Positions 4,364-61,177 are shown, counted from the first letter of the stretch. The stretch is DNA of 64,000 nt from Candidatus Dojkabacteria bacterium (GCA_030583825.1 CP129477.1:622491-686490), one strand, 5' to 3'. Translations and numbers: made by a program. Notes: generated by a model not told the origin, from the letters alone.

Positions 4364-4435
4364 GGATCGTTAGCTCAGTGGTAGAGCAGTCGGCTCTTAA
4401 CCGATCGGTCGGGGGTTCGAGTCCCTCACGATCCA
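4364..4435 (+). tRNA. tRNA-Lys (anticodon CTT); CCA not encoded
   Basis: Manual cloverleaf: acceptor GGATCGT/ACGATCC, D-arm GCTC-AGTGGTA-GAGC, anticodon stem GTCGG/CCGAT with loop CTCTTAA (anticodon CTT), T-arm GGGGG-TTCGAGT-CCCTC, discriminator A. It is followed by a terminator hairpin and a T-run. Confidence 0.85.
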
Positions 4436-4790
4436 AAGGTGAATTTTCTCTATGGAATAGAGAGGGTTCACCTTTTTTGTTTAATAAAGGGACTCGAAGC
4501 TGAATGAGAAATAGCAGCTGCTCCTGCTATTTCGAGTGAAGAAGGGGTCGAGGAGTATACCTTGGTATTTCAATATAATACGAGGTGACCGAGTCCCTCA
4601 CGATCCAAAGTGGAGTTTTTCCTACGAAGTAGGAGGAGCTCCACTTTTTGTATTGTATGAGAACCCCGTAATAATTGACGGTTCGACTTGAGTGAAACGA
4701 AAGAGCCGGAGGCGGGGATCCCTCACGATCCAAAGGTGAATTTTCTCTATGGAATAGAGAGGGTTCACCTTTTTTGTTTAAATCGGGGCT
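4419..4790 (+). repeat. Three direct copies of the tRNA-Lys 3' end (approx. CGAGTCCCTCACGATCCAAAG) each followed by a terminator-like hairpin; copies at about 4419-4483, 4591-4650 and 4714-4783
   Basis: Copies 1 and 3 are nearly identical for ~90 nt, including the post-hairpin TTTTTTGTTTAA..GGGaCTCGAA. Copy 2 keeps the 18-nt tRNA 3' end but has a different hairpin (GTGGAGTTTTTCCTACGAAGTAGGAGGAGCTCCAC) that preserves pairing. Confidence 0.8.
4438..4480 (+). terminator. Intrinsic terminator after tRNA-Lys
   Basis: Hairpin GGTGAATTTTCTCTATGGAATAGAGAGGGTTCACC followed by TTTTTTGTTT. Confidence 0.7.
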
Positions 4791-12276: not shown

Positions 12277-12954
12277 ATGAGTGAACAAAATGTCTTATTC
12301 AGTGAACAAAGAATCCCACTTGTCGGTAGTTATACTGAGGTTATGTCGCTTTTGCCGTACACAATAGAATATGCCATTGGAGCGAAGTTAACCTCGCCTT
12401 TTGAACGAATTGTTATTGCCATTGCCGGGGGTGCCGGAGCAGGGAAGTCCCACCTTGCGGATGATATTGCTGCAAAATTAAAAGAATATGAAGCGACAGT
12501 TATTTCCTTAGATAGGTTTTATAAAGACAATGTTTCGGAAGATAGCGTTCGTAACGAGCTTCCTGACGCAATTGATTTTGAATTTGCCAAAGAAGTATTG
12601 TCCCGAGTAAAAGATTATGCCGCTCAGACCGTAAGTGTTCCGGCATTTGATATGGCGAGCCGCAAGCGAATGAAAGATGAAATTATTCAATGCGGACGAG
12701 TAGTTATCCTAGAAGGAGCTTTCTTTTTGTATCCGGACTTTAACCATATCGTGAATATCAGTATTTTCATGGATGCCTTAGAGGCAGTTCGTTTCCAAAG
12801 GAGACTTGCTCGAGATGTCCAATTGAAAGGGAAGCAATATGCAATGATTCAACAGGAATGGAATACAACCACATTACCGGCATATTACAAATATATTGCT
12901 GTGCAAAGGAAGTTTGCGGATGTGATTGTTGTCAACAATGATGCGAAGCCGTAG
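12277..12954 (+). CDS. udk: Uridine kinase / phosphoribulokinase-family nucleoside kinase
   Basis: P-loop IAIAGGAGAGKSHLADDIAAKL, then VISLDRFYKD, VVILEGAFFLYPD and ...DVIVVNN, collinear with the Udk motifs (GIAGxSGSGKS..., DxYYKD, ILEG, DIIVP). Confidence 0.75.
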   Translation: MSEQNVLFSEQRIPLVGSYTEVMSLLPYTIEYAIGAKLTSPFERIVIAIAGGAGAGKSHLADDIAAKLKEYEATVISLDRFYKDNVSEDSVRNELPDAIDFEFAKEVLSRVKDYAAQTVSVPAFDMASRKRMKDEIIQCGRVVILEGAFFLYPDFNHIVNISIFMDALEAVRFQRRLARDVQLKGKQYAMIQQEWNTTTLPAYYKYIAVQRKFADVIVVNNDAKP

Positions 12955-13184
12955 CCTTTCGTTCACGGCCGGAATTTTACTCACGCTCCAGTCTATTACT
13001 GTTTTTCGTTTTCAATAATCTGAAATAGGTTACTTTTGCCACAAGCCTCTCAATAGTCCTCCCGCTATAAAATTCCGGAGATCACTCAAGACTACGGCTT
13101 CACATAGTAATCCTCTCGCTCGGAACTATGATTTTGCTCTCACATCAGTGAGTGCCCACCTGTGATTGTGAATTTGTAATCAGA

Positions 13185-13320
13185 TAACTTTTTGAGTGAA
13201 TCCTGATATTGTGGAGAGTCTCGAATTAAGATCCTAGAATCATTCGATAGAACTGAGTGAGTCCCTGATGTTTGTAGCGTGCTGGACAAGCGGATAAGTT
13301 TTTAAGTGAATCCACGATTT
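13185..13320. repeat. Three iteron-like ~35-nt direct sub-repeats (consensus approx. GATAAsTTTTTrAGTGArTCCnsGAT) in the 445-bp udk/PEGA convergent spacer
   Basis: Three copies: cagataactttttgagtgaatcctgat, gatagaactgagtgagtccctgat, gcggataagtttttaagtgaatccacgat. The third copy runs into the 90-nt element that is also present at 61053. Confidence 0.6.
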
Positions 13321-13395
13321 TTCGTAGTAAGTATTCATTATTGATAAGAAATTCAACGAATTTACGTTAAACGATAAATCGCTGCATGAACGAAA
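13307..13395. repeat. ~90-nt intergenic element, copy A (second copy at 61053-61143)
   Basis: Two conserved blocks: TGAATCCACGATTTTTCGTAGTAArTATTCATT and CGAATTTACGTTAArCGATAAATCGCTGCATGAAyGAAA, separated by a variable ~18-nt middle. Contains the palindrome AGCGATAAATCGCT. Confidence 0.75.
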
Positions 13396-13399
13396 AAAT

Positions 13400-15052
13400 T
13401 TATCTGATTATTTTGAAGTATAAGTTGGAATCGTCTCCTCGGTAAATAAAAGTCGAGTCTTCCAAGTAGAAAGATGGGTTTGCCACGCCGCTTTGCAATT
13501 GATAAAGGTTACTACCGATGTAGTCAATTGCCCACATATTGCGATCACTTGTGAAAAGCAGGTAGTGAGAATTAAAAATCCATTTTATTGATTCGATTGG
13601 AACTTCGTTATTTGTAATAAGCTCGCGCTTTCCAAGCTCAATATAATGCTCTGCGGCACGCTTGTTATACGTAAATGTGTACAGATCTTTCTTTGACTCG
13701 CTTGTATAGGAAACTAGAAATCTTTCTGTAACAAACAGAACATCATCAACAAAGTTATCGCTGATTTTTAGCATAGAAATGCCTTCTCCCTGCGAAATAA
13801 TTGGCGTTTCTCCAAGCTTTTGAGTTGCATTCGTAATTTCATACTCTCCAACTCGGTTGTCGTACATATTTCCTACTAAATAAGAACCATCTATTCCGGC
13901 CAAGACGATAATTGTTTTGTCAGACAAATTTACAGCTGAGACTTCTTTTGGAGCTGTTGGCAGAGAAACATATTTGATGTCAGACTCAATTTCGTTTCCA
14001 TTGAAAGAGATTTGCTCAACAGAGTAGTGGGTTCCTTCTGGTAATGGGGAAGGTGTTGGAAGGTTCTGATCAAGTGCATTCTTTACGATGATTACGCCGT
14101 CGTCTGTCATTGCCCAGATGAATGTGTCAAATCGTGATAACTTATCAAACAAAATAATTCGTGCTCCGGTTTTAATATTGTACGAAATAACCTGGCTTTT
14201 AGACTCGATTAACAAATAATCTGAATTTTTGGCCCATTTGAGAATGCTGTCATCTTCGTCAATGTAAATATCGAGCTGAACGTTGCTAAATGGAATAATC
14301 TTTTCAACTTTTGTTGTAGAAAATGTCACAATTGAGGCTGATTTCTGACCTCTTGCATTCGCAATAGTGACAAGAATAGATTTTCCGGTAGGGGAGAGTG
14401 TAAAGTCATCAATGCTCCATCCTTGTGGAACCTCAATGAATGCACGCTCTCTTGTTGCAGGCTTTGGAGGTTCAAAGAAACTTCGCTGCACAATATATTT
14501 TGTAATGCTATATAACTGTTGCGCCGGGCTTTGCGCTGTTGGTACTGGAGTTACGGTAGTACCGGGGGTTTGTGTCGTGATCGCAGTTGCATCTGATGAC
14601 GAAGGAGACAAAATATAAACGCCTGATTCGTTCGAAAATACTTTATCTATTGCGCCAATTGAAGTAACCGATTCTGCGCCTGTTTGCTTAATCAAAGGAG
14701 CAATAATGATTGTTGCAAGCCCATGCCTTACGTCAACTGTTCTTTTGTACGAGTAATAACCGTCTTTGGACAGGTTAATTGCGTATGTTCCAGTTGTGAG
14801 ATTTGGAATTGCGCGATTTGTCGTTCCAATATATTCATTATTTATTGTGATTGCTGCGTCAGAAGGGTTCGTTTCGAGGTTTAAAACTCCTGTTTTTATA
14901 AGCTGTTTTTGAGAAATGTCTATTGAGTAGCCATTAACAATGATGAGAATGACGATAGTCGTACCGATAAGAAATAGACCTGAAAAGATGGGAAGAGCCA
15001 CAGTTATCACCTTTTTTGCCAACTTTTTTATTGCGTCTTTGGGAAATTTCAT
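13400..15052 (-). CDS. Membrane-anchored PEGA-domain protein with a beta-propeller-like C-terminal region
   Basis: 550 aa. N-terminal TM (ALPIFSGLFLIGTTIVILIIV), then a PEGA-like stretch (NLETNPSDAAITINNEYIGTTNRAIPNLTTGTYAINLSKDGYYSYKRTVDVRHG), then repetitive beta-rich sequence. Confidence 0.6.
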   Translation of the reverse strand: MKFPKDAIKKLAKKVITVALPIFSGLFLIGTTIVILIIVNGYSIDISQKQLIKTGVLNLETNPSDAAITINNEYIGTTNRAIPNLTTGTYAINLSKDGYYSYKRTVDVRHGLATIIIAPLIKQTGAESVTSIGAIDKVFSNESGVYILSPSSSDATAITTQTPGTTVTPVPTAQSPAQQLYSITKYIVQRSFFEPPKPATRERAFIEVPQGWSIDDFTLSPTGKSILVTIANARGQKSASIVTFSTTKVEKIIPFSNVQLDIYIDEDDSILKWAKNSDYLLIESKSQVISYNIKTGARIILFDKLSRFDTFIWAMTDDGVIIVKNALDQNLPTPSPLPEGTHYSVEQISFNGNEIESDIKYVSLPTAPKEVSAVNLSDKTIIVLAGIDGSYLVGNMYDNRVGEYEITNATQKLGETPIISQGEGISMLKISDNFVDDVLFVTERFLVSYTSESKKDLYTFTYNKRAAEHYIELGKRELITNNEVPIESIKWIFNSHYLLFTSDRNMWAIDYIGSNLYQLQSGVANPSFYLEDSTFIYRGDDSNLYFKIIR

Positions 15053-15099
15053 AGCTCCTGTATTGTAACATGTTTTGCTAAGGGGAGGTATAATAGAAA

Positions 15100-16295: not shown

Positions 16296-16321
16296 TATGA
16301 GCGACGCGGTATAATTCCAAC
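16296..16321 (+). promoter_or_regulatory. Putative promoter of mscL (GCGGTATAATTCCAAC directly abutting the ATG, probably leaderless)
   Basis: TATAAT at 16310-16315, six nt before the ATG at 16322. The same GGTATAAT(TC) form recurs at the small-paralog array, rplJ and rpsA. Confidence 0.45.
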
Positions 16322-18521: not shown

Positions 18522-18588
18522 GATTTACAGTTCCTAAGAGTTTTTCGCGCGGGGGTCTTTCCCCCGCGCAAAATATTCCGTTACGTGC

Positions 18589-21794: not shown

Positions 21795-21821
21795 TTGGAT
21801 TTTTTGGCGACATGGTATAAT
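21795..21821 (+). promoter_or_regulatory. Putative promoter of the rplJ-rplL operon (TTGGAT...TGGTATAAT); the region down to 21928 is probably the L10 leader
   Basis: Extended -10 TGGTATAAT at 21813-21821, then a ~105-nt leader before rplJ. Confidence 0.45.
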
Positions 21822-21928
21822 AACCCAGGTCTAAGACAGTTGGGGGTAATACCTTAAAGATCCAACCGAGACAAATTTTTTCCTTTCATCTGTCTTTTTC
21901 CACATATATAAACTTGACCGTGTGTGCT

Positions 21929-22935: not shown

Positions 22936-22995
22936 TTTCGTCGCGAGATTTTCGCAATGCCACGCGCATTGCTCTAACTCGCTCCGAATTTAAAA

Positions 22996-23025
22996 AGAGG
23001 GATCGAAAGATCCCTCTTTTTATTT
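22996..23025 (+). terminator. Intrinsic terminator after rplL
   Basis: AGAGGGATC-GAAA-GATCCCTCT hairpin followed by TTTTTATTT. Confidence 0.75.
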
Positions 23026-28616: not shown

Positions 28617-28625
28617 TTATCCACA
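28617..28625 (+). promoter_or_regulatory. Consensus DnaA box TTATCCACA, with an adjacent imperfect inverted partner TGTGGACAG at 28607-28615, in the dnaE-dnaA spacer
   Basis: Perfect 9/9 match to the bacterial DnaA-box consensus 18 nt upstream of the dnaA start. Confidence 0.6.
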
Positions 28626-28642
28626 ATGTCTTACAATAGCTC

Positions 28643-30067
28643 ATGGCGGCGATTCAAACCATGTCAGATTCTGACTTACAAAGAATGTGGGAGCTTGCAA
28701 AAGTTTCTCTCGCGAAAAAGATTTCTCCAACTCATTTTAAAGCATGGATTGAACATAGTGCACGCCTTGCCGAAATTGACGAAATTAACAAAAAAGTTGT
28801 CATTGATGTAAAAAGCTCTGTCGCGCTTAATGCGATAGAGAAGTATGTAAAAGCATCACTTTCCGATATCTTTACTGACTTTTTGGGAGAGTCTCACGAG
28901 GCACTCTTTAGAGTGAAAGCAGCAAGTTTTCAGAATGCTCACTCTATGACAGCAGTTAAAAAAGTTCAGACTATGCCGGAAACTACGGGTTCACTTTTAG
29001 ATCCTGAAAATGCATATAACACACGTCTCAAGAAGGCAATTGATAATGCAGGTCTTAACGATAAGTACACATTTGAAACATTTGTTATTGGCGCAAATAA
29101 TCAGCTTGCACATGCCGCAGCAACAGCAGTGGCAGGAAGTTTGGGAACAGCGTACAACCCGCTGTTCATTTATGGAACGGTTGGTGTTGGTAAAACTCAC
29201 TTAATGCAGGCAGTTGCCCGACGAGCATTGGAAAAAGATCCAGACAGAAAAATCTTGTATGTCTCAAGCGAAACATTTTTAAATGCGATGGTTGACTCTA
29301 TTCGATCAAAGAAAACAGCAGAATTCCGTAACCAATATCGTAAGCTTGACTTGCTCATGATTGATGACATTCAGTTTATTTCGGACTGGGAAGCTGCCCA
29401 AAATGAACTTTTTCACACATTTAACGTGCTGTACGAAGCGGGAAAACAGATAATTCTTGCATCAGATAAACCTCCATCAGAAATTCGAAATCTGGCAGAT
29501 AGACTTCGTTCACGTTTTGAGGGAGGAATGGTCGCAGATGTAACAGCTCCTGACTACGAAACTCGTGTTGCAATTCTCACAAAGCATAATGAAGAGCAGC
29601 TTGATACTCGCCTTCCACAGGAAGCATTGGAAGTTATTGCGTCGTATGTTGAAAGCAATATTCGTCAGCTATTTGGGGCATATAATAAAGTTCACACATA
29701 TGCAAAAGTTACTAAAGCGCCAGTTGATCGTCTTATTGTTGAGAAGATTCTGGGCCATGAGCGGGAGCTTGCACGCAAAAAAGTAAAGGTTGAAGACATT
29801 CTCGACAAAGTGGGTGAAGAATTTGGAATCACAATCGGTCAATTAAAGTCTTCGACAAGGGCCGCATCTGTGGTACTTCCAAGACAAGTATGTATGTACC
29901 TTATTCGTGATATACTTCATTATCCACTTGAACGGGTTGCACGAAGCCTCAAGCGATCCGACCATACGACGGTACTTCATGCCGTAGATAAGGTCATCAA
30001 ATTGATGGAAAATGACCATCATTTGCGGGCGCAAGTCGTTGCAATCAAGCAGCAATTGCTTAAGTAA
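28643..30067 (+). CDS. dnaA: Chromosomal replication initiator DnaA
   Basis: AAA+ Walker A GTVGVGKTHLMQAVA, Walker B LLMIDDIQF, sensor/arginine-finger region, and the C-terminal DNA-binding helix-turn-helix (VCMYLIRDILHYPLERVARSLKRSDHTTVLHAVDKV). Confidence 0.9.
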   Translation: MAAIQTMSDSDLQRMWELAKVSLAKKISPTHFKAWIEHSARLAEIDEINKKVVIDVKSSVALNAIEKYVKASLSDIFTDFLGESHEALFRVKAASFQNAHSMTAVKKVQTMPETTGSLLDPENAYNTRLKKAIDNAGLNDKYTFETFVIGANNQLAHAAATAVAGSLGTAYNPLFIYGTVGVGKTHLMQAVARRALEKDPDRKILYVSSETFLNAMVDSIRSKKTAEFRNQYRKLDLLMIDDIQFISDWEAAQNELFHTFNVLYEAGKQIILASDKPPSEIRNLADRLRSRFEGGMVADVTAPDYETRVAILTKHNEEQLDTRLPQEALEVIASYVESNIRQLFGAYNKVHTYAKVTKAPVDRLIVEKILGHERELARKKVKVEDILDKVGEEFGITIGQLKSSTRAASVVLPRQVCMYLIRDILHYPLERVARSLKRSDHTTVLHAVDKVIKLMENDHHLRAQVVAIKQQLLK

Positions 30068-33648: not shown

Positions 33649-33909
33649 ATGCCAAATCTACGTAATGCAAAAAAGGCTGTGAGACAGTCAGAAGCGCGCT
33701 ATGCAGCAAACAGAACCGCTAAAGACAGAATCCACCGCTGGGAATTAAAAACAAAAGCTCTCATTGTTGAGAAAAATAAAGAAGAAGCAACCAAAGCAGT
33801 TTCATTTTTGACGAAGCTTCTCGACAAAGCGGCACGACGAAATGTTGTATCCGGCAACCGAGCAGAGAGAGTAAAGTCTCGTATGCAAAAATTGTTGAAT
33901 ACGCTATAA
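33649..33909 (+). CDS. rpsT: 30S ribosomal protein S20
   Basis: MPNLRNAKKAVRQSEARYAANRTAKDRIHR...VKSRMQKLL matches S20 throughout; the longer ORF-track N-terminal extension is unlikely to be translated. Confidence 0.85.
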   Translation: MPNLRNAKKAVRQSEARYAANRTAKDRIHRWELKTKALIVEKNKEEATKAVSFLTKLLDKAARRNVVSGNRAERVKSRMQKLLNTL

Positions 33910-33916
33910 TTATTCA

Positions 33917-36616: not shown

Positions 36617-36656
36617 GTCCTAATTAACAGCGCTCGCGCTTAAAAACGCGAGCGCT
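36617..36656. terminator. Bidirectional intrinsic terminator between convergent genes
   Basis: Perfect 12-bp stem ACAGCGCTCGCG-CTTAAAAA-CGCGAGCGCTGT, flanked by A-rich sequence on one side and T9 on the other. Confidence 0.8.
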
Positions 36657-36686
36657 GTTTTTTTTAATGAAAACTTCCTTTTTTTG

Positions 36687-42226: not shown

Positions 42227-42293
42227 TACGGCATAATGGCTGTTTTTATATTGCAATATAGACATTTAGCAATCAGATGCTATAATTGCTACT

Positions 42294-48092: not shown

Positions 48093-48132
48093 CTTTTATT
48101 CCCCTCATAGGGCAATTGTCCAAGCGAGTTTA

Positions 48133-48163
48133 TTGAATACTATCCTATAATGCGGTATAATTC
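48133..48163 (+). promoter_or_regulatory. Promoter of small paralog A (TTGAAT, 17-nt spacer, TATAAT within GGTATAATTC)
   Basis: TTGAAT at 48133-48138 and TATAAT at 48156-48161. The same GGTATAATTC -10 form lies upstream of paralogs B (48656-48665) and C (49135-49144). Confidence 0.55.
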
Positions 48164-48210
48164 ACTATCAACAATTATGTTGAATCGCTCATATTCATAG
48201 GAGTTTTCTC

Positions 48211-48543
48211 ATGGGAAAGAAAGTTACCGTTAAACAGGGTGAACAGCTTGTCTTGTTAATGACGTGCCAGAATTTAGAAGTAACATTAGCAGGTGACCAT
48301 CAAAGCGATGTTTCCCAGTTTGGTGAAGTCAGCTATGATGTTGATGAATGGAATGATTGGACTTATCTTTCTCCCTTTGAAGGGAAAGAACTACATATTT
48401 CTGATTTGCCAACTATCCCGTTTGGAATTTATTTCCACGATGTTGGGGAAGAATTCACTATACGGTTTACTCCGACTAAAGAAATGACTGTTCTAGTAGA
48501 AAGTATTGATGTTGGAACTATTCCACTTTCTACGCTAGATTAG
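48211..48543 (+). CDS. Small hypothetical protein, paralog A of a four-gene tandem family
   Basis: 110 aa with RBS AGGAG. Shares the N-terminal pattern KKVTVKQGEQ...LEVTLAG and the C-terminal motif (TIPLSTLD) with the three downstream genes. Confidence 0.6.
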   Translation: MGKKVTVKQGEQLVLLMTCQNLEVTLAGDHQSDVSQFGEVSYDVDEWNDWTYLSPFEGKELHISDLPTIPFGIYFHDVGEEFTIRFTPTKEMTVLVESIDVGTIPLSTLD

Positions 48544-48697
48544 TCTATATGAGTTACGCTGGGGAGAAAACAGTTGCATCTTCGAATACAGAAGTTTTTT
48601 CCCTTGCCTAACACCTTTTTTCAATTAAAACTCTCTCTTTATATCTTATAGTTGTGGTATAATTCTTGGACGTTCGATCATCTAGGAGCACGTGTAT

Positions 48698-49015
48698 ATG
48701 CTGAAGATTCAGGTGGGAAAGAATACGCCAAGTTTCGCACGGACTGTCGTTGTTAAAGCTACCAGCGCTGGGAAGCTTGTTATCCTGGCGGATGAAGAGG
48801 AGGTATCAATATCAGACGCGTCATCTAACATTGAAACAGTCATTACTGGCACGAATCCCACAGGAGTTTTGGTAAACGGAGTGAAGTATGACTCTGTTAT
48901 TGTTGTCACTAATACAGGGATGACAGAATTCTCTTGGTCGGTAAATTTTGGGCAACGGTACTATAACGAAAAGCTTCCAATCACCATAACACCTATGGCT
49001 ATGTCCAATGATTGA
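48698..49015 (+). CDS. Small hypothetical protein, paralog B
   Basis: MLKIQVGKNTPSFARTVVVKA... and C-terminal KLPITITPMAM. RBS AGGAG 9 nt upstream, own promoter TGGTATAATTC, own terminator downstream. Confidence 0.6.
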   Translation: MLKIQVGKNTPSFARTVVVKATSAGKLVILADEEEVSISDASSNIETVITGTNPTGVLVNGVKYDSVIVVTNTGMTEFSWSVNFGQRYYNEKLPITITPMAMSND

Positions 49016-49176
49016 AGAACGCCGGCAGGGCAGAGTATATAACACAATACATCCCTGCAGGCTTTTTTCCTTTTCGAATGTTAACTTTATGTAGTCAGTT
49101 CTCCCCATATTTCTTTACTTTGTACGTATTATAGGGTATAATTCGAGAGTGTTTTTTAGCGAAAGGAACGTAGAAA

Positions 49177-49473
49177 GTGGTACTTGAAGTGCAAATTGGC
49201 GAAGGTAACCCCTTCACGGTAGAAACAGTCTTTGTTGAGGGTGAAGACGATGTAGTTACGCGCCTCTTCATTGATGATGAAGAACTTGTTCCTGAGTTTC
49301 CAGTTCGTGTTCATGTTCGAGCTTTTGGCGGAATCCAAACCTCCAATGCGGGCAATCATGACGAAATGACTGTGTACTTAGGTATCCACCAAATGCCCGA
49401 TGCGGCGTATTTCAAGGATGGGATAGCCAGCCAGAAAGTTCGCAATTTCCCCGTTGAAATCACCGCGCTATGA
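49177..49473 (+). CDS. Small hypothetical protein, paralog C (GTG start)
   Basis: VLEVQIGEGNPFTVETVFVEG... clearly aligns with paralog B's LKIQVGKNTPSFARTVVVKA; C-terminal NFPVEITAL. Confidence 0.6.
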   Translation: MVLEVQIGEGNPFTVETVFVEGEDDVVTRLFIDDEELVPEFPVRVHVRAFGGIQTSNAGNHDEMTVYLGIHQMPDAAYFKDGIASQKVRNFPVEITAL

Positions 49474-49648
49474 CCGACCCTAAAAACTAAAAAACTTTTT
49501 ATGAACCAGCCGGGATATCCCAAATGAAAATATATCCCCGCTGGTTTTTCCTTTTATTTTCCTCTAGAAATTCGCAAACACCTTTATTTATTCCGCATTA
49601 TAGGATACAATACTATATCGCACATTGTATAGCTTGGAGTTCATTATC

Positions 49649-49978
49649 ATGTTAGTGAAGTTGGTAGTAAAGAACGGTGACAGCACCAAAGTAATCTTGA
49701 CCCCCAAAGTTGAGATTGATGCAGAGTGGAATATTCTCGCACACGTCCCTGTAGAAATAGAAGGGTATACAAGCATAGAAATTCATAATGCTTCGGGTAA
49801 CCTTAGAGAAGTGAGACTCTCTTTTGGTGAACGTTCTGTGTCCTGCATCTGGGCAACTATCTATCTCAATAAGCCCGGAAACTATATATTCTTTTTTCCA
49901 CCGAGAGATAGTGGCATCCCGACCCCAGAGTGGTTTATTTACACAAAAGAACTTCCTCTCACTATCACCGCGTCCTAA
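49649..49978 (+). CDS. Small hypothetical protein, paralog D
   Basis: MLVKLVVKNGDSTKVILTPKVE... with C-terminal ELPLTITAS. Preceded by a terminator (CCAGCCGGGATAT...ATATCCCCGCTGGTTTTT) and a -10 TACAAT. Confidence 0.55.
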   Translation: MLVKLVVKNGDSTKVILTPKVEIDAEWNILAHVPVEIEGYTSIEIHNASGNLREVRLSFGERSVSCIWATIYLNKPGNYIFFFPPRDSGIPTPEWFIYTKELPLTITAS

Positions 49979-50254: not shown

Positions 50255-51760
50255 ATGATGTATCTACGCCCCAAGAAGTTAGATATCTTTGGTGACAAAA
50301 CGTCCCTAGAAATCTATATCAATAAAGAAACTGCCGATCAATCCGGTATTAAAGAGGGAGACCTCATTGATTTATCCTTTGCAACACTTGAAACAGGCGC
50401 AATTGCCGTTCTTACTGACACTCTTGTAGACGTCAGCGAAGTCGGTCTACCTGCCAGCTTGTGGACAGTTCATCCTGTTTCTTCGGAAGAATTAGTCGCA
50501 CTCGATGTTCAGGGTCAGGCAAAATCTATTCACTATATTCGAAAAAAGATTCTCGGTCAGCCATTAAACTACGAAGAAATTCGTGAAATTATGTACGACA
50601 TTGCAAAGCGACGTCTTTCACCTGTTGAAATGACATATTTCGCGTCAGCATCGTATAGTCCTGGGTTTTCAGAAGAAGAAATGCATTTTCTTACTAAAGG
50701 AATGGCAGAAACCGGAACAATCATGGACTTCAAAAAGATGGGTGAGTTTGTCGTTGATAAGCACTCGATTGGAGGATTGCCATCAAAAGGTGTGACTCCT
50801 GTATTAGTATCGCTTATGGCGTCACTCGGATTCATTATTCCTAACACAAGCACTCGAGCAATTACGTCTCCAGCGGGAACGTCTGACGTTCTTGAAACGA
50901 TGATGCCGGTTGATCTTACAGAACATGAAATCTACGATGTCGTAGGCAAAACAAACGGATGTTTAGTATGGGGTGGAGGTCTTGATCTTGCTCCTGCAGA
51001 CGACATTCTTATTCAGATTGAACGGCCATTGCATGTGGAATCGTATGACAAATTCATTGTTAGTATTATTGCCAAAAAGATAGCAACAGGAATTACACAT
51101 TTGATTCTTGATATCCCGTATGGAACAGGTACAAAAGTCCCTGATGCAGATGTTCCAGTTGTTGCTGGCGCATTTGAAAAGCTCTGTGCAAAGTTTGGTA
51201 TTAAAGTATTTGTATACAAGCGAACTTCTCGAGGAGTAGATGGAAACGGTATTGGGCCAGTATTGGAAGCACGAGATGTTTTATGGGTTCTGGAAAGAGA
51301 TAGTCGCCGACCAGTTGGTCTTGAAAATATCACACTTGATATGGCTGCACGCCTTATCGAAATTACCGGAAAACATACATACGAAGAAGCATTTAAACTC
51401 CTGCGTGAGCAGCTTGAGTCAAAGAAAGCATTGAAAAAGTTCTGGGAAATGGCCCGTGCACAGGGGGCGCAAGTAGAAATGAAAGGTGACGATATGATCC
51501 CAGGAAGCTATACATTTGACGTTGTAGCGCCAAAGTCAGGCACAATTGATCGCTATGATCCTCATGCAATCGTTGTTCTTACTAAAGCATTGGGAGCACC
51601 ATATGTTAAAAAAGCAGGAATTTATATTCGTCATCAACCGGGAGATTCTGTTAAAGAGGGCGATATTATCGCAACATTACACGCCGAAAGCGCAAATCGT
51701 TTGGCACTTGCAAAGCGAGTATTAGAAGAACAGAAAGAGAAGTTAGTGAGCTTTTCCTGA
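50255..51760 (+). CDS. AMP phosphorylase / thymidine-phosphorylase-family nucleoside phosphorylase (archaeal-type DeoA, ~500 aa with an extra N-terminal domain)
   Basis: DKHSIGGLPSKGVTPVLVSLMASLG...TSTRAITSPAGTSDVLE corresponds to the TP-family phosphate/glycosyl-binding core. The N-terminal LRPKKLDIFGDKTSLEIYINKETADQSGIKEGDLIDL and the 501-aa length resemble AMP phosphorylases rather than ~440-aa thymidine phosphorylases. Confidence 0.65.
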   Translation: MMYLRPKKLDIFGDKTSLEIYINKETADQSGIKEGDLIDLSFATLETGAIAVLTDTLVDVSEVGLPASLWTVHPVSSEELVALDVQGQAKSIHYIRKKILGQPLNYEEIREIMYDIAKRRLSPVEMTYFASASYSPGFSEEEMHFLTKGMAETGTIMDFKKMGEFVVDKHSIGGLPSKGVTPVLVSLMASLGFIIPNTSTRAITSPAGTSDVLETMMPVDLTEHEIYDVVGKTNGCLVWGGGLDLAPADDILIQIERPLHVESYDKFIVSIIAKKIATGITHLILDIPYGTGTKVPDADVPVVAGAFEKLCAKFGIKVFVYKRTSRGVDGNGIGPVLEARDVLWVLERDSRRPVGLENITLDMAARLIEITGKHTYEEAFKLLREQLESKKALKKFWEMARAQGAQVEMKGDDMIPGSYTFDVVAPKSGTIDRYDPHAIVVLTKALGAPYVKKAGIYIRHQPGDSVKEGDIIATLHAESANRLALAKRVLEEQKEKLVSFS

Positions 51761-60096: not shown

Positions 60097-61041
60097 ATGG
60101 ATCAGAAAATTCCTGATGTAATTCAGCAGACTATTGATGATATTGCAGCAATTAAAGTACAGGGAGCAACAAATGTCGCGTTAGCTACATTTGCAGCAAT
60201 CGAAGAATGGGCAAAAAAGACAGATATTACAGAGTGGGAAGTCTTTAAAGATAGAGCAGCGACATATGCAAATATGCTTGCAAATGCCCGTCCAAACGAA
60301 CCTCTTGCAAAGAATGGTGTCCGATATATGATGACCAACCTTACCGTTAAGTACCCAGGAATCAAAGATGTAAAAGCAGGTGCAGACGCGTTTATTGAGC
60401 TTGCTTCTTCGTATAATAAGCTTCTTCGTGAGTCAAAAATCAAAATTGCTGGTTACGGACTCGAAGTCGGAAAAGACACAAATACCGTATTTACTCACTG
60501 TCACTCAAGCACAGCAGAAGCAATTATTGTTGGTTTAAACCAGCAGAGAAAGAGAGTTGCAATTGCAACAGAAACACGTCCGTTATATCAGGGGAGAATC
60601 ACCGCAAAGAACCTTGTTACTCACGGAGTAAAGACAATTATGATTGTTGATTCAGCAGCATCATACTTCATTAAAGATGACGAAAATCTTCCTGTTGATA
60701 TGGTATTTCTTGGCGCTGACCAGGTAAATGTCTATGGAGATGCAGTAAACAAAGTTGGAAGCTTTAGCATGGGACTTGCATCATATTTTGCAAGCAAGCC
60801 ATTGTATATTGTGACTCCAAGCTTGAAATTGGATCTGACAACAATCTACCAGCCTATTAAAATTGAGCTTCGCAAGGGCAACGAAATTTGGCCAGAAGCA
60901 CCAGAAGGTTTAGAAATTATCAATCCGGCATTCGACATTGTTCCTCACCAGTTTATCACTGGATACATTACGGAGCTAGGAGTTATTAAGCCTGGAGAAT
61001 TAGAGGACAAAGTTCGTAGAGCCTATGAATGGGTTTCGTAG
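60097..61041 (+). CDS. eIF-2B alpha/beta/delta-family isomerase, most consistent with ribose-1,5-bisphosphate isomerase (e2b2); alternatively MtnA-like
   Basis: 314 aa with the eIF-2B-family fold motifs VFTHCHSSTAEAII, ATETRPLYQGRITAK..., GADQVNVYGDAVNKVGSFSMGLASY. Sits 8 kb downstream of an AMP-phosphorylase-like gene. Confidence 0.55.
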   Translation: MDQKIPDVIQQTIDDIAAIKVQGATNVALATFAAIEEWAKKTDITEWEVFKDRAATYANMLANARPNEPLAKNGVRYMMTNLTVKYPGIKDVKAGADAFIELASSYNKLLRESKIKIAGYGLEVGKDTNTVFTHCHSSTAEAIIVGLNQQRKRVAIATETRPLYQGRITAKNLVTHGVKTIMIVDSAASYFIKDDENLPVDMVFLGADQVNVYGDAVNKVGSFSMGLASYFASKPLYIVTPSLKLDLTTIYQPIKIELRKGNEIWPEAPEGLEIINPAFDIVPHQFITGYITELGVIKPGELEDKVRRAYEWVS

Positions 61042-61052
61042 CATTTTTTGAA

Positions 61053-61143
61053 TGAATCCACGATTTTTCGTAGTAAATATTCATTGGGATTATTACAAAT
61101 ACCGCGAATTTACGTTAAGCGATAAATCGCTGCATGAATGAAA
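61053..61143. repeat. ~90-nt intergenic element, copy B (see 13307-13395)
   Basis: TGAATCCACGATTTTTCGTAGTAAATATTCATT ... CGAATTTACGTTAAGCGATAAATCGCTGCATGAATGAAAG; about 90% identical to copy A outside a variable middle. Located between the e2b2-like gene and ychF. Confidence 0.75.
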
Positions 61144-61177
61144 GAAATGTTATGAAATTTTATGATAAAATACGTCT

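Follow-up and report, generated by a model that had tools for sequence, protein, structure and literature searches.

A long hairpin element with covarying arms, dispersed between genes of a Candidatus Dojkabacteria genome and a close relative

The DNA analysed here is a 64-kb stretch (the window) of the 1.09-Mb genome of a Candidatus Dojkabacteria bacterium, a member of the Patescibacteria or candidate phyla radiation (CPR), in which two intergenic spacers carry one conserved element, as copy A and copy B. The YchF protein encoded in the window is 100% identical to one from an NCBI metagenome-assembled genome, on a contig of 1.09 Mb. Copy A is located in a 445-nt spacer between a PRK/uridine-kinase-family gene (12277-12954, + strand) and a PEGA-domain gene (13400-15052, - strand), and copy B in a 136-nt spacer between an IF-2B-family gene (60097-61041, + strand) and ychF (61178, + strand). 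The 47.7 kb separating the two copies are occupied by core genes (rplJ, rplL, dnaX, dnaE, dnaA, cysS, rpsA, radA, and rho); thus A and B are not att sites of an island, and the reading of two direct copies as prophage attachment sites was discarded. A preliminary description of this stretch had reported two blocks conserved at 13307 and 61053 in the same orientation, with unrelated flanks, and both statements were confirmed. Block 1 (TGAATCCACGATTTTTCGTAGTAA, 24 nt) matches exactly only at 13307-13330 and 61053-61076, and block 2 (CGAATTTACGTTAARCGATAAATCGCTGCATGAA, 34 nt with one R position) only at 13357-13390 and 61105-61138, all on the + strand; allowing up to three mismatches added no further match in the window, and 100 shuffles gave none. 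A third copy within the window was found neither by blastn nor by a covariance-model scan run without filters. The centre between the blocks cannot be aligned, and the outer flanks of A and B are unrelated in sequence, yet within each copy the two flanks are complementary to each other. This complementarity, like that of block 1 to block 2, had escaped the earlier description. The element is a single imperfect palindrome of ~118 nt, i.e., one long hairpin with blocks 1 and 2 as arms and the variable centre as apical loop; its components in the window are the following:

13291-13406, + strand: copy A, a complete imperfect hairpin of ~116 nt with its apical loop at ~13333-13359; covariance-model score 142 bits.
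13307-13339, + strand: block 1 as the inner left arm of copy A, containing the G·A half-loop 13308-13309 and GUAAGU.AUUCAU.
13357-13395, + strand: block 2 as the inner right arm of copy A, in which AUUUAC pairs with GUAAGU, ACGA with UCGU, and AAAUCG with CGAUUU; it contains the G·A half-loop 13388-13389.
61037-61154, + strand: copy B, a complete hairpin of ~118 nt with the same architecture as copy A; covariance-model score 145.6 bits.

The left arm of copy A consists of an outer stem followed by block 1, and its right arm of block 2 followed by the other side of the outer stem. RNAalifold, applied to 13288-13408 together with 61034-61156, returned one long hairpin of 35 pairs, none of them broken and five changed on both sides. 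The internal differences between the copies (13331 G/A, 13371 A/G, and 13391 C/T, the last together with 13306 G/A) are all neutral with respect to pairing. The minimum free energy (MFE) is -28.5 kcal/mol for copy A (z = -3.4 on the + strand and -2.0 on the - strand) and -29.3 kcal/mol for copy B (z = -3.0 and -1.5, respectively). The stronger fold of the + strand is explained by its non-canonical appositions, which in the window copies comprise seven G·U and no A·C on that strand. Folds computed with RNA parameters are significant, whereas those computed with DNA parameters are not (z = -1.0).

A covariance model derived from copies A and B identified a full-length homologue in a related species with 88% YchF identity (contig L021, 8891-8775; 46 bits, E ~7e-9); no unit was found in a more distant relative with 72% YchF identity. 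The three sequences (A, B, and the L021 unit) were aligned by fitting them to the model, and an independent MFE fold of the relative's unit, which served as a cross-check, has the identical architecture (z = -6.7). In the resulting alignment 96% of the cells pair, and 15 of the 35 pairs are changed on both sides. Among 500 shuffles none reached the observed paired fraction, count of doubly changed pairs or covariation score, and controls in which the partner arm was slid along paired at only 28-50%. The covariation analysis proposed in the preliminary description thus shows that the pairing of the hairpin has been maintained through sequence change, with many compensatory changes; the instances examined number three or four in all. 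Some parts are invariant in the three sequences, namely a 2x2 tandem G·A internal loop (13308-09 with 13388-89), the helix GUAAAU/AUUUAC and the apical AUUCAU, while the pairs that border the G·A loop change from UGAA/UGAA to CGAG/CGAG.

Such a pattern, with 15 covarying pairs arranged around an invariant GA/GA loop, an invariant helix and AUUCAU, is consistent with a functional structured RNA, and so are the excess of G·U over A·C, which favours the + strand, and the contrast between RNA-parameter z-scores of -3.0 to -3.4 on this strand and -1.0 with DNA parameters. On this account, which we hold to be possible rather than probable, the element is a cis-acting hairpin in the 3' untranslated region (3' UTR) with its start at the upstream gene's stop codon; it would either shield the 3' end of the mRNA or fix its position, or offer a processing or binding site to a double-strand-specific RNase or some other protein, with the G·A loop and AUUCAU as recognition features. 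A further point in its favour is the position of the hairpins relative to coding regions. The outermost 11-15 pairs differ between the copies and are built from local flank sequence: in copy A the right outer arm covers 13400-13402, where the minus-strand PEGA gene has its stop codon, and the left outer arm of copy B contains the IF-2B stop codon (61039-61041). Each copy has an outer stem of its own, in which the last codons of the adjacent gene, stop codon included, face an inverted copy of that sequence. In the relative, one outer arm is likewise the IF-2B stop region and the other its inverted copy, 86% complementary over 21 nt. A separate hairpin of this kind reaches into the spacer of copy A:

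12941-13105, no strand assigned: H1, a long hairpin of 165 nt (z = -3.6 on the + strand and -4.6 on the - strand).

The left arm of H1 is formed by the last 14 nt of the PRK-family gene, including its stop codon (12952-12954), and the right arm (13088-13105) repeats that gene end in inverted form (89% complementary over 18 nt). An overlap with a stop codon was seen in all hairpins examined (that of IF-2B in two species, of PEGA, and, for H1, of PRK), and the IF-2B unit is retained in both species. Hairpins that pair with a stop codon were not seen at other genes of the window and are thus not a general habit of this genome. Since each unit starts at a stop codon, we infer that it is transcribed as a 3'-UTR hairpin. 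The genes concerned lack a GC-rich terminator of the form usual in this genome, where short GC-rich stems are followed by U-tracts (e.g., 18538-18578, 22990-23024, and 36624-36662), which also speaks for the structured RNA. However, in two of three cases (copy A and the relative's unit) the gene that contributes the stop codon is antisense to the favoured strand, no conserved promoter drives the unit, and no family in Rfam 15 reached its gathering threshold, the only matches being microRNA and snoRNA hits at noise level (E > 0.4).

As a hairpin immediately downstream of a coding region, the element resembles intrinsic terminators and REP-type stabilisers of mRNA 3' ends. An intrinsic terminator has a GC-rich stem of 5-14 bp with a U-tract after it; the element, in contrast, has an AU-rich stem of ~45 bp with internal loops and no consistent U-tract, and a scan for intrinsic terminators found none in either spacer. 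A more specific version of the RNA interpretation, to which we give only a small chance, holds that the element is a previously undescribed Dojkabacteria RNA, a stop-codon-anchored 3'-UTR element whose G·A loop and AUUCAU would be bound by a protein or RNase and which would act on the upstream mRNA by controlling its 3' end, its stability or the termination of its translation. As part of the same doubtful proposal, the candidate target mRNAs would be those of nucleoside-salvage genes, namely the IF-2B gene (ribose-1,5-bisphosphate-isomerase-like; in two species) and the nearby PRK/uridine-kinase-family gene.

With respect to these genes, the window contains three that belong to the CPR-type nucleoside-salvage route: the PRK/uridine-kinase gene (12277-12954), a gene similar to AMP/pyrimidine-nucleoside phosphorylases (50255-51760), and the IF-2B isomerase-like gene (60097-61041). 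Two of the three are located directly upstream of hairpins, possibly by coincidence.

The arms that copy gene ends can also be accounted for without selection or mobility. Template switching during replication is reported (PMC8794818) to create and maintain hairpins; at quasi-palindromes, inverted copying would make and extend the arms and would repair them in a manner that mimics compensatory change. This process can explain the flank-derived outer stems, and the outer arms are indeed inverted copies of native gene ends, as seen in the H1 right arm versus the PRK end (89% over 18 nt), in the relative's arms (86% over 21 nt), and in an additional arm-like segment upstream of copy A, termed R1. 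The first 17 nt of R1 (TAATCAGATAACTTTTT) are an inverted copy of the 3' end of the PEGA gene; R1 and the single right arm at 13377-13410 are 74% complementary over 34 nt, and within these 34-nt arms R1 and the PEGA end share a perfect 11-nt complement (TAATCAGATAA/TTATCTGATTA). We nevertheless regard template switching as an improbable explanation of the whole element: it provides no account of the same ~90-nt core at three unlinked loci, and copying from arm to arm should erase mismatches, yet the G·A loop, bulges and G·U pairs persist across species.

R1 is one of two segments to the left of copy A that resemble its left arm:

13177-13222, + strand: R1, an orphan, decayed left arm, of which 13178-13203 is 85% identical over 26 nt to R3 (13288-13313).
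13246-13287, + strand: R2, a further orphan remnant of a left arm, of the GAGTCC subtype (CGATAGAACTGAGTGAGTCCCTGATGTTTGTAGCG) and shared with strain contig L003.

R1, R2, and R3 are three versions of a left arm that face one right arm. R2 (~13246-13275) has little in common with the repeats beyond AGTGAGTCC. Taken alone, R1 and R2 are unstructured (z >= -0.4), and the possibility that they are hairpins of their own was rejected for this reason.

From block 1 rightwards, 1,693 nt of the strain contig L003 are identical to the window. The 117 nt on its left side correspond to another paralogue of the sequence that precedes copy A (77-89% identity) and have no R1 unit; a homologue of the H1 right arm flanks the element there as well, and the outer stem has three mismatches. 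L003 is either a recombinant or an assembly chimera, and on both alternatives the species has a third copy. The ends of several short-read contigs fall inside block 1. In the related species, the PEGA and PRK genes are separated by only 54 nt, as compared to 445 nt in the window; therefore copy A, R1, R2, and H1 are lineage-specific. The short spacer has no significant homology to R1 (score 25 versus 22.9 ± 3.5 for shuffles). The unit at the IF-2B stop codon is common to both species and is inverted in one of them. The 42 kb of the relative that were examined contain one complete unit and two orphan arms adjoining it (B1* and B2'), one corresponding to block 1 at about 8950-8908 and the other to block 2 at 9033-8995. 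Taken together, at least three copies are present in the species of the window, and both presence (copy A) and orientation (the IF-2B copy) vary between the species. Presumably, R1, R2, and the relative's orphan arms are what is left, in decayed form, of earlier units or local duplications. That the relative lacks copy A at the orthologous site, and that orphan arms and a recombinant strain contig resemble the dynamics of repeats, counts against the structured-RNA interpretation.

The surroundings of the relative's unit also differ in gene content. A 274-aa gene to which no family is assigned lies between the hairpin and ychF (L021 9130-9954), and four extra genes, PadR and others, follow ychF (L021 11256-14360) without counterparts in the window. 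Genes have therefore been gained and lost in the vicinity of the element.

Based on the dispersed copies, orphan arms, clusters, and polymorphism of presence and orientation, we favour the interpretation of the element as a REPIN/MITE-like hairpin repeat that constitutes a small dispersed family restricted to this Dojkabacteria species and its close relative, with a probability of roughly 50%. The family might have spread via duplication or recombination, or by the action of a hairpin-recognising single-stranded-DNA transposase; recombination between the unit's own inverted outer arms could have inverted the relative's IF-2B unit, and local duplications may have left the orphan arms that resembled iterons. 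Any effect on the host would most likely concern the 3' end or stability of the upstream mRNA. The copies seen so far are two complete ones in 64 kb and a third inferred from L003, plus the one complete unit and two orphan arms in 42 kb of the relative.

The closest parallel is provided by REPINs, i.e., REP doublets that form hairpins, in which two conserved inverted regions and a spacer form the hairpin, compensatory changes are frequent, decayed singlets occur, and clusters arise by insertion beside existing units (Bertels and Rainey, 2011; PMC3116915). The element shares with them the inverted conserved regions and less conserved spacer, the hairpin of ~100 nt, compensatory changes in the arms, orphan arms as decayed remnants, clustering by existing units, and a strictly extragenic, dispersed distribution. 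It differs from REPINs in several respects: it has no sequence similarity to them, its spacer is short (about 27 nt), the element as a whole is AT-rich rather than GC-rich, the copy number is apparently low to moderate, the outer stem is borrowed from the stop-codon region of a neighbouring gene, and its mini-palindromes are not conserved in the relative. MITEs and related palindromic repeats (e.g., ERIC/IRU, Correia/NEMIS, RUP, and BOX) are small non-coding sequences whose inverted arms form long hairpins when transcribed; they show polymorphism of presence or absence and of orientation at orthologous sites, are frequently co-transcribed as parts of 3' UTRs, and occur in modular forms. The small non-coding hairpin form and the polymorphism of presence and orientation are common to these families and the element, whereas the element has no terminal inverted repeat shared with a known insertion sequence, no target-site duplication and no sequence relationship to them, and its copy-specific outer stems are foreign to them. 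In particular, its arms are inverted, but the outermost 11-15 nt are derived from the flanks and differ between copies, unlike the terminal inverted repeats of a MITE, which are common to its copies and lie inside a direct target-site duplication.

Several observations weigh against the REPIN/MITE-like interpretation. REPINs have a cognate RAYT (Y1 transposase) gene in the genome, with the repeats on its flanks. No transposase or RAYT gene is present among the open reading frames (ORFs) of the window, i.e., in 64 kb of 1.09 Mb, and inspection revealed no target-site duplication outside the hairpins; the GAATGAA at both inner junctions of copy B belongs to the paired arms and is not a target duplication. 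In a REPIN each arm is by itself a REP, a short palindrome that is recognised independently; the mini-palindromes ACGATTTTTCGT and GCGATAAATCGC of the window copies are lost in the relative's complete unit (CGGCATTTTTTACAG / GGTAACAAATGCTG), which may argue against recognition of REP-type mini-hairpins. Some features, namely the conserved non-Watson-Crick positions, the G·U bias, and the significance of RNA folds only, fit selection on RNA shape better than a selfish palindrome. Finally, REPINs and MITEs number tens to hundreds of dispersed copies per genome, and here three or four instances, from 64 kb of a 1.09-Mb genome, limit the estimate of copy number.

Further copies and known families were sought in larger collections. 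Scans with an exact 20-mer of block 1 against a genome contig collection and an exact 19-mer of block 2 against a metagenome contig collection returned chance matches only (a Prevotella repeat and unrelated GC-rich contigs). Two viral scans and a blastn search against phages and plasmids produced no match to the element, and an nhmmer profile of block 1 detected no additional copies over the loci examined. Hammerhead ribozymes, C/D-box RNAs, sigma-28 or extracytoplasmic-function (ECF) promoters, parS sites, diversity-generating retroelements (DGR), and retrons were dropped upon visual comparison, as their core motifs or partner genes are missing.

Another comparison concerns integron attC sites, which are imperfect palindromes with a variable terminal loop and strand-specific folding, and in which structure rather than sequence is conserved. 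The element is similar in length and is likewise an imperfect palindrome right after a stop codon, with a variable terminal loop and a strand-specific fold. In contrast to attC, its ends lack RYYYAAC/GTTRRRY core sites (GTTAAAC/GTTAAGC occur in mid-arm only), there is neither an integrase nor a cassette array, 47 kb of housekeeping genes lie between the copies, and the genes on either side of copy A are convergent.

The preliminary description had offered a different group of candidates, in which the repeats would be a protein-binding array on DNA, i.e., iterons, DnaA boxes, a partition site or a shared operator. The direct repeats R1 and R3 are real, CGAWWWWTCG is confined to the element (four observed versus 1.4 expected), and GAATCCACG is a 6/9 match to a DnaA box. 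The evidence on the other side is broader. Plasmid-type iterons are several near-identical direct repeats of 17-22 bp that keep helical phase and adjoin a rep gene, an AT-rich unwinding region and DnaA boxes. The iteron-like sub-repeats hold up in so far as R1 is 85% identical to R3 over 26 nt, but R2 is weak, and the spacing of 50-110 nt is not that of iterons and keeps no helical phase. There is no rep or par gene in the window, the context is that of the core chromosome, and the spacer is missing in the close relative, all of which disagrees with a plasmid-type iteron or partition site. Neither spacer contains a TTWTNCACA box; the only perfect match (TTATCCACA) is at 28617, just before dnaA. 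The proposed coincidence of the spacer with a GC-skew switch was examined, and none exists at 13 kb, as cumulative skew climbs monotonically across the window; an oriC is thus contradicted by the lack of both a DnaA-box cluster and a skew switch in the window. The palindrome AGCGATAAATCGCT, suggested as a protein site or an RNA hairpin, is neither a conserved local hairpin nor an operator; it is imperfect in copy A and absent in the relative, and its halves pair with block 1 instead. More generally, the palindromes are not conserved in the relative's unit, and the strong TATAAT boxes usual in this genome have no counterpart in the element. An operator used at two promoters is not supported either, because the extended -10 box of ychF (TGATAAAAT, 61163-61171) is outside the element, the copy B hairpin ending 9 nt upstream of it, and because copy A has no downstream gene on its strand. 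A protein-binding array is accordingly very improbable, and the iteron, DnaA, and operator readings are effectively excluded. From the earlier list of candidates, a REP/MITE-like repeat and a small structured RNA stay viable, while iterons, a partition site, DnaA boxes, and an operator found no support; under either of the two viable interpretations the iteron/origin idea can be dropped.

In the region of dnaA (28617-30067), the gene has the perfect DnaA box upstream, yet skew rises throughout, so that either skew does not mark the origin here or the origin is elsewhere. The usual promoter form was established from a survey of 38 gene starts, in which the start codon is preceded, at a distance of 5-8 nt, by a strong TATAAT that often takes the form TGnTATAAT. 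Most genes have such a near-consensus box at this distance (often TGnTATAAT or GGTATAAT) with no Shine-Dalgarno sequence in between, as at 15084-15099, 16306-16321, 33903-33916, 42280-42293, and 61163-61177, and this arrangement implies largely leaderless mRNAs. The element contains no promoter of this form; block 1 has TAGTAA only, and the reading of block 1 as a promoter (TTGAAT-17-TAGTAA) was rejected after the survey of the genome's real promoters.

A coding function was considered as well. Some copies have ORFs of 29-38 codons, corresponding to a putative small protein that would begin MNPRFFVV... on the + strand or MN(I/T)YYEKSWIH... on the - strand. However, in copy A the + frame is closed by a stop at codon 13, the - frames have only 11-12 residues in common before they diverge, the relative's sequence has a stop in frame but no start, and a 49-aa ORF of L003 has no match in a database of 5.8 billion proteins. 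Judged from the sequences, this lack of frame conservation refutes the small-protein reading, for which we see next to no likelihood, and the element is not coding.

Non-coding elements of candidate-phylum bacteria are almost uncharted, and a vague report of two blocks has here become a defined unit supported by covariation; the covariance model obtained can be applied to any Dojkabacteria genome. In our assessment the structure is firmly established, unlike the function. If the family is mobile, a REPIN-like element would be present in a reduced genome of ~1 Mb, where such passengers are unexpected, and at these loci it would account for breaks in assemblies and for rearrangements between strains. 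If the element is a functional RNA, it would represent a new 3'-UTR motif with a stem that engages the stop codon.

Some additional features of the window deserve mention. A ribosomal protein L10 leader (RF00557) at 21812-21891, directly upstream of rplJ (21914), scores 42 bits versus a gathering score of 44 and is probably real. Between rho and the next gene there are 1,559 nt (48093-49651) with no ORF of more than 110 codons and no Rfam match, which is unusually long for a genome of ~1 Mb. Three repeats of the 3' end of the tRNA-Lys gene at 4364-4435 (TCCCTCACGATCCA), each with the terminator hairpin, lie downstream of it (4422-4484, 4594-4656, and 4719-4781); copies 1 and 3 are identical, and the repeats look like integration/excision scars or a local triplication. 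A comparable series of tRNA-end fragments (GGACCGTGAGGG) is found in the relative (L028, 13720-14110).

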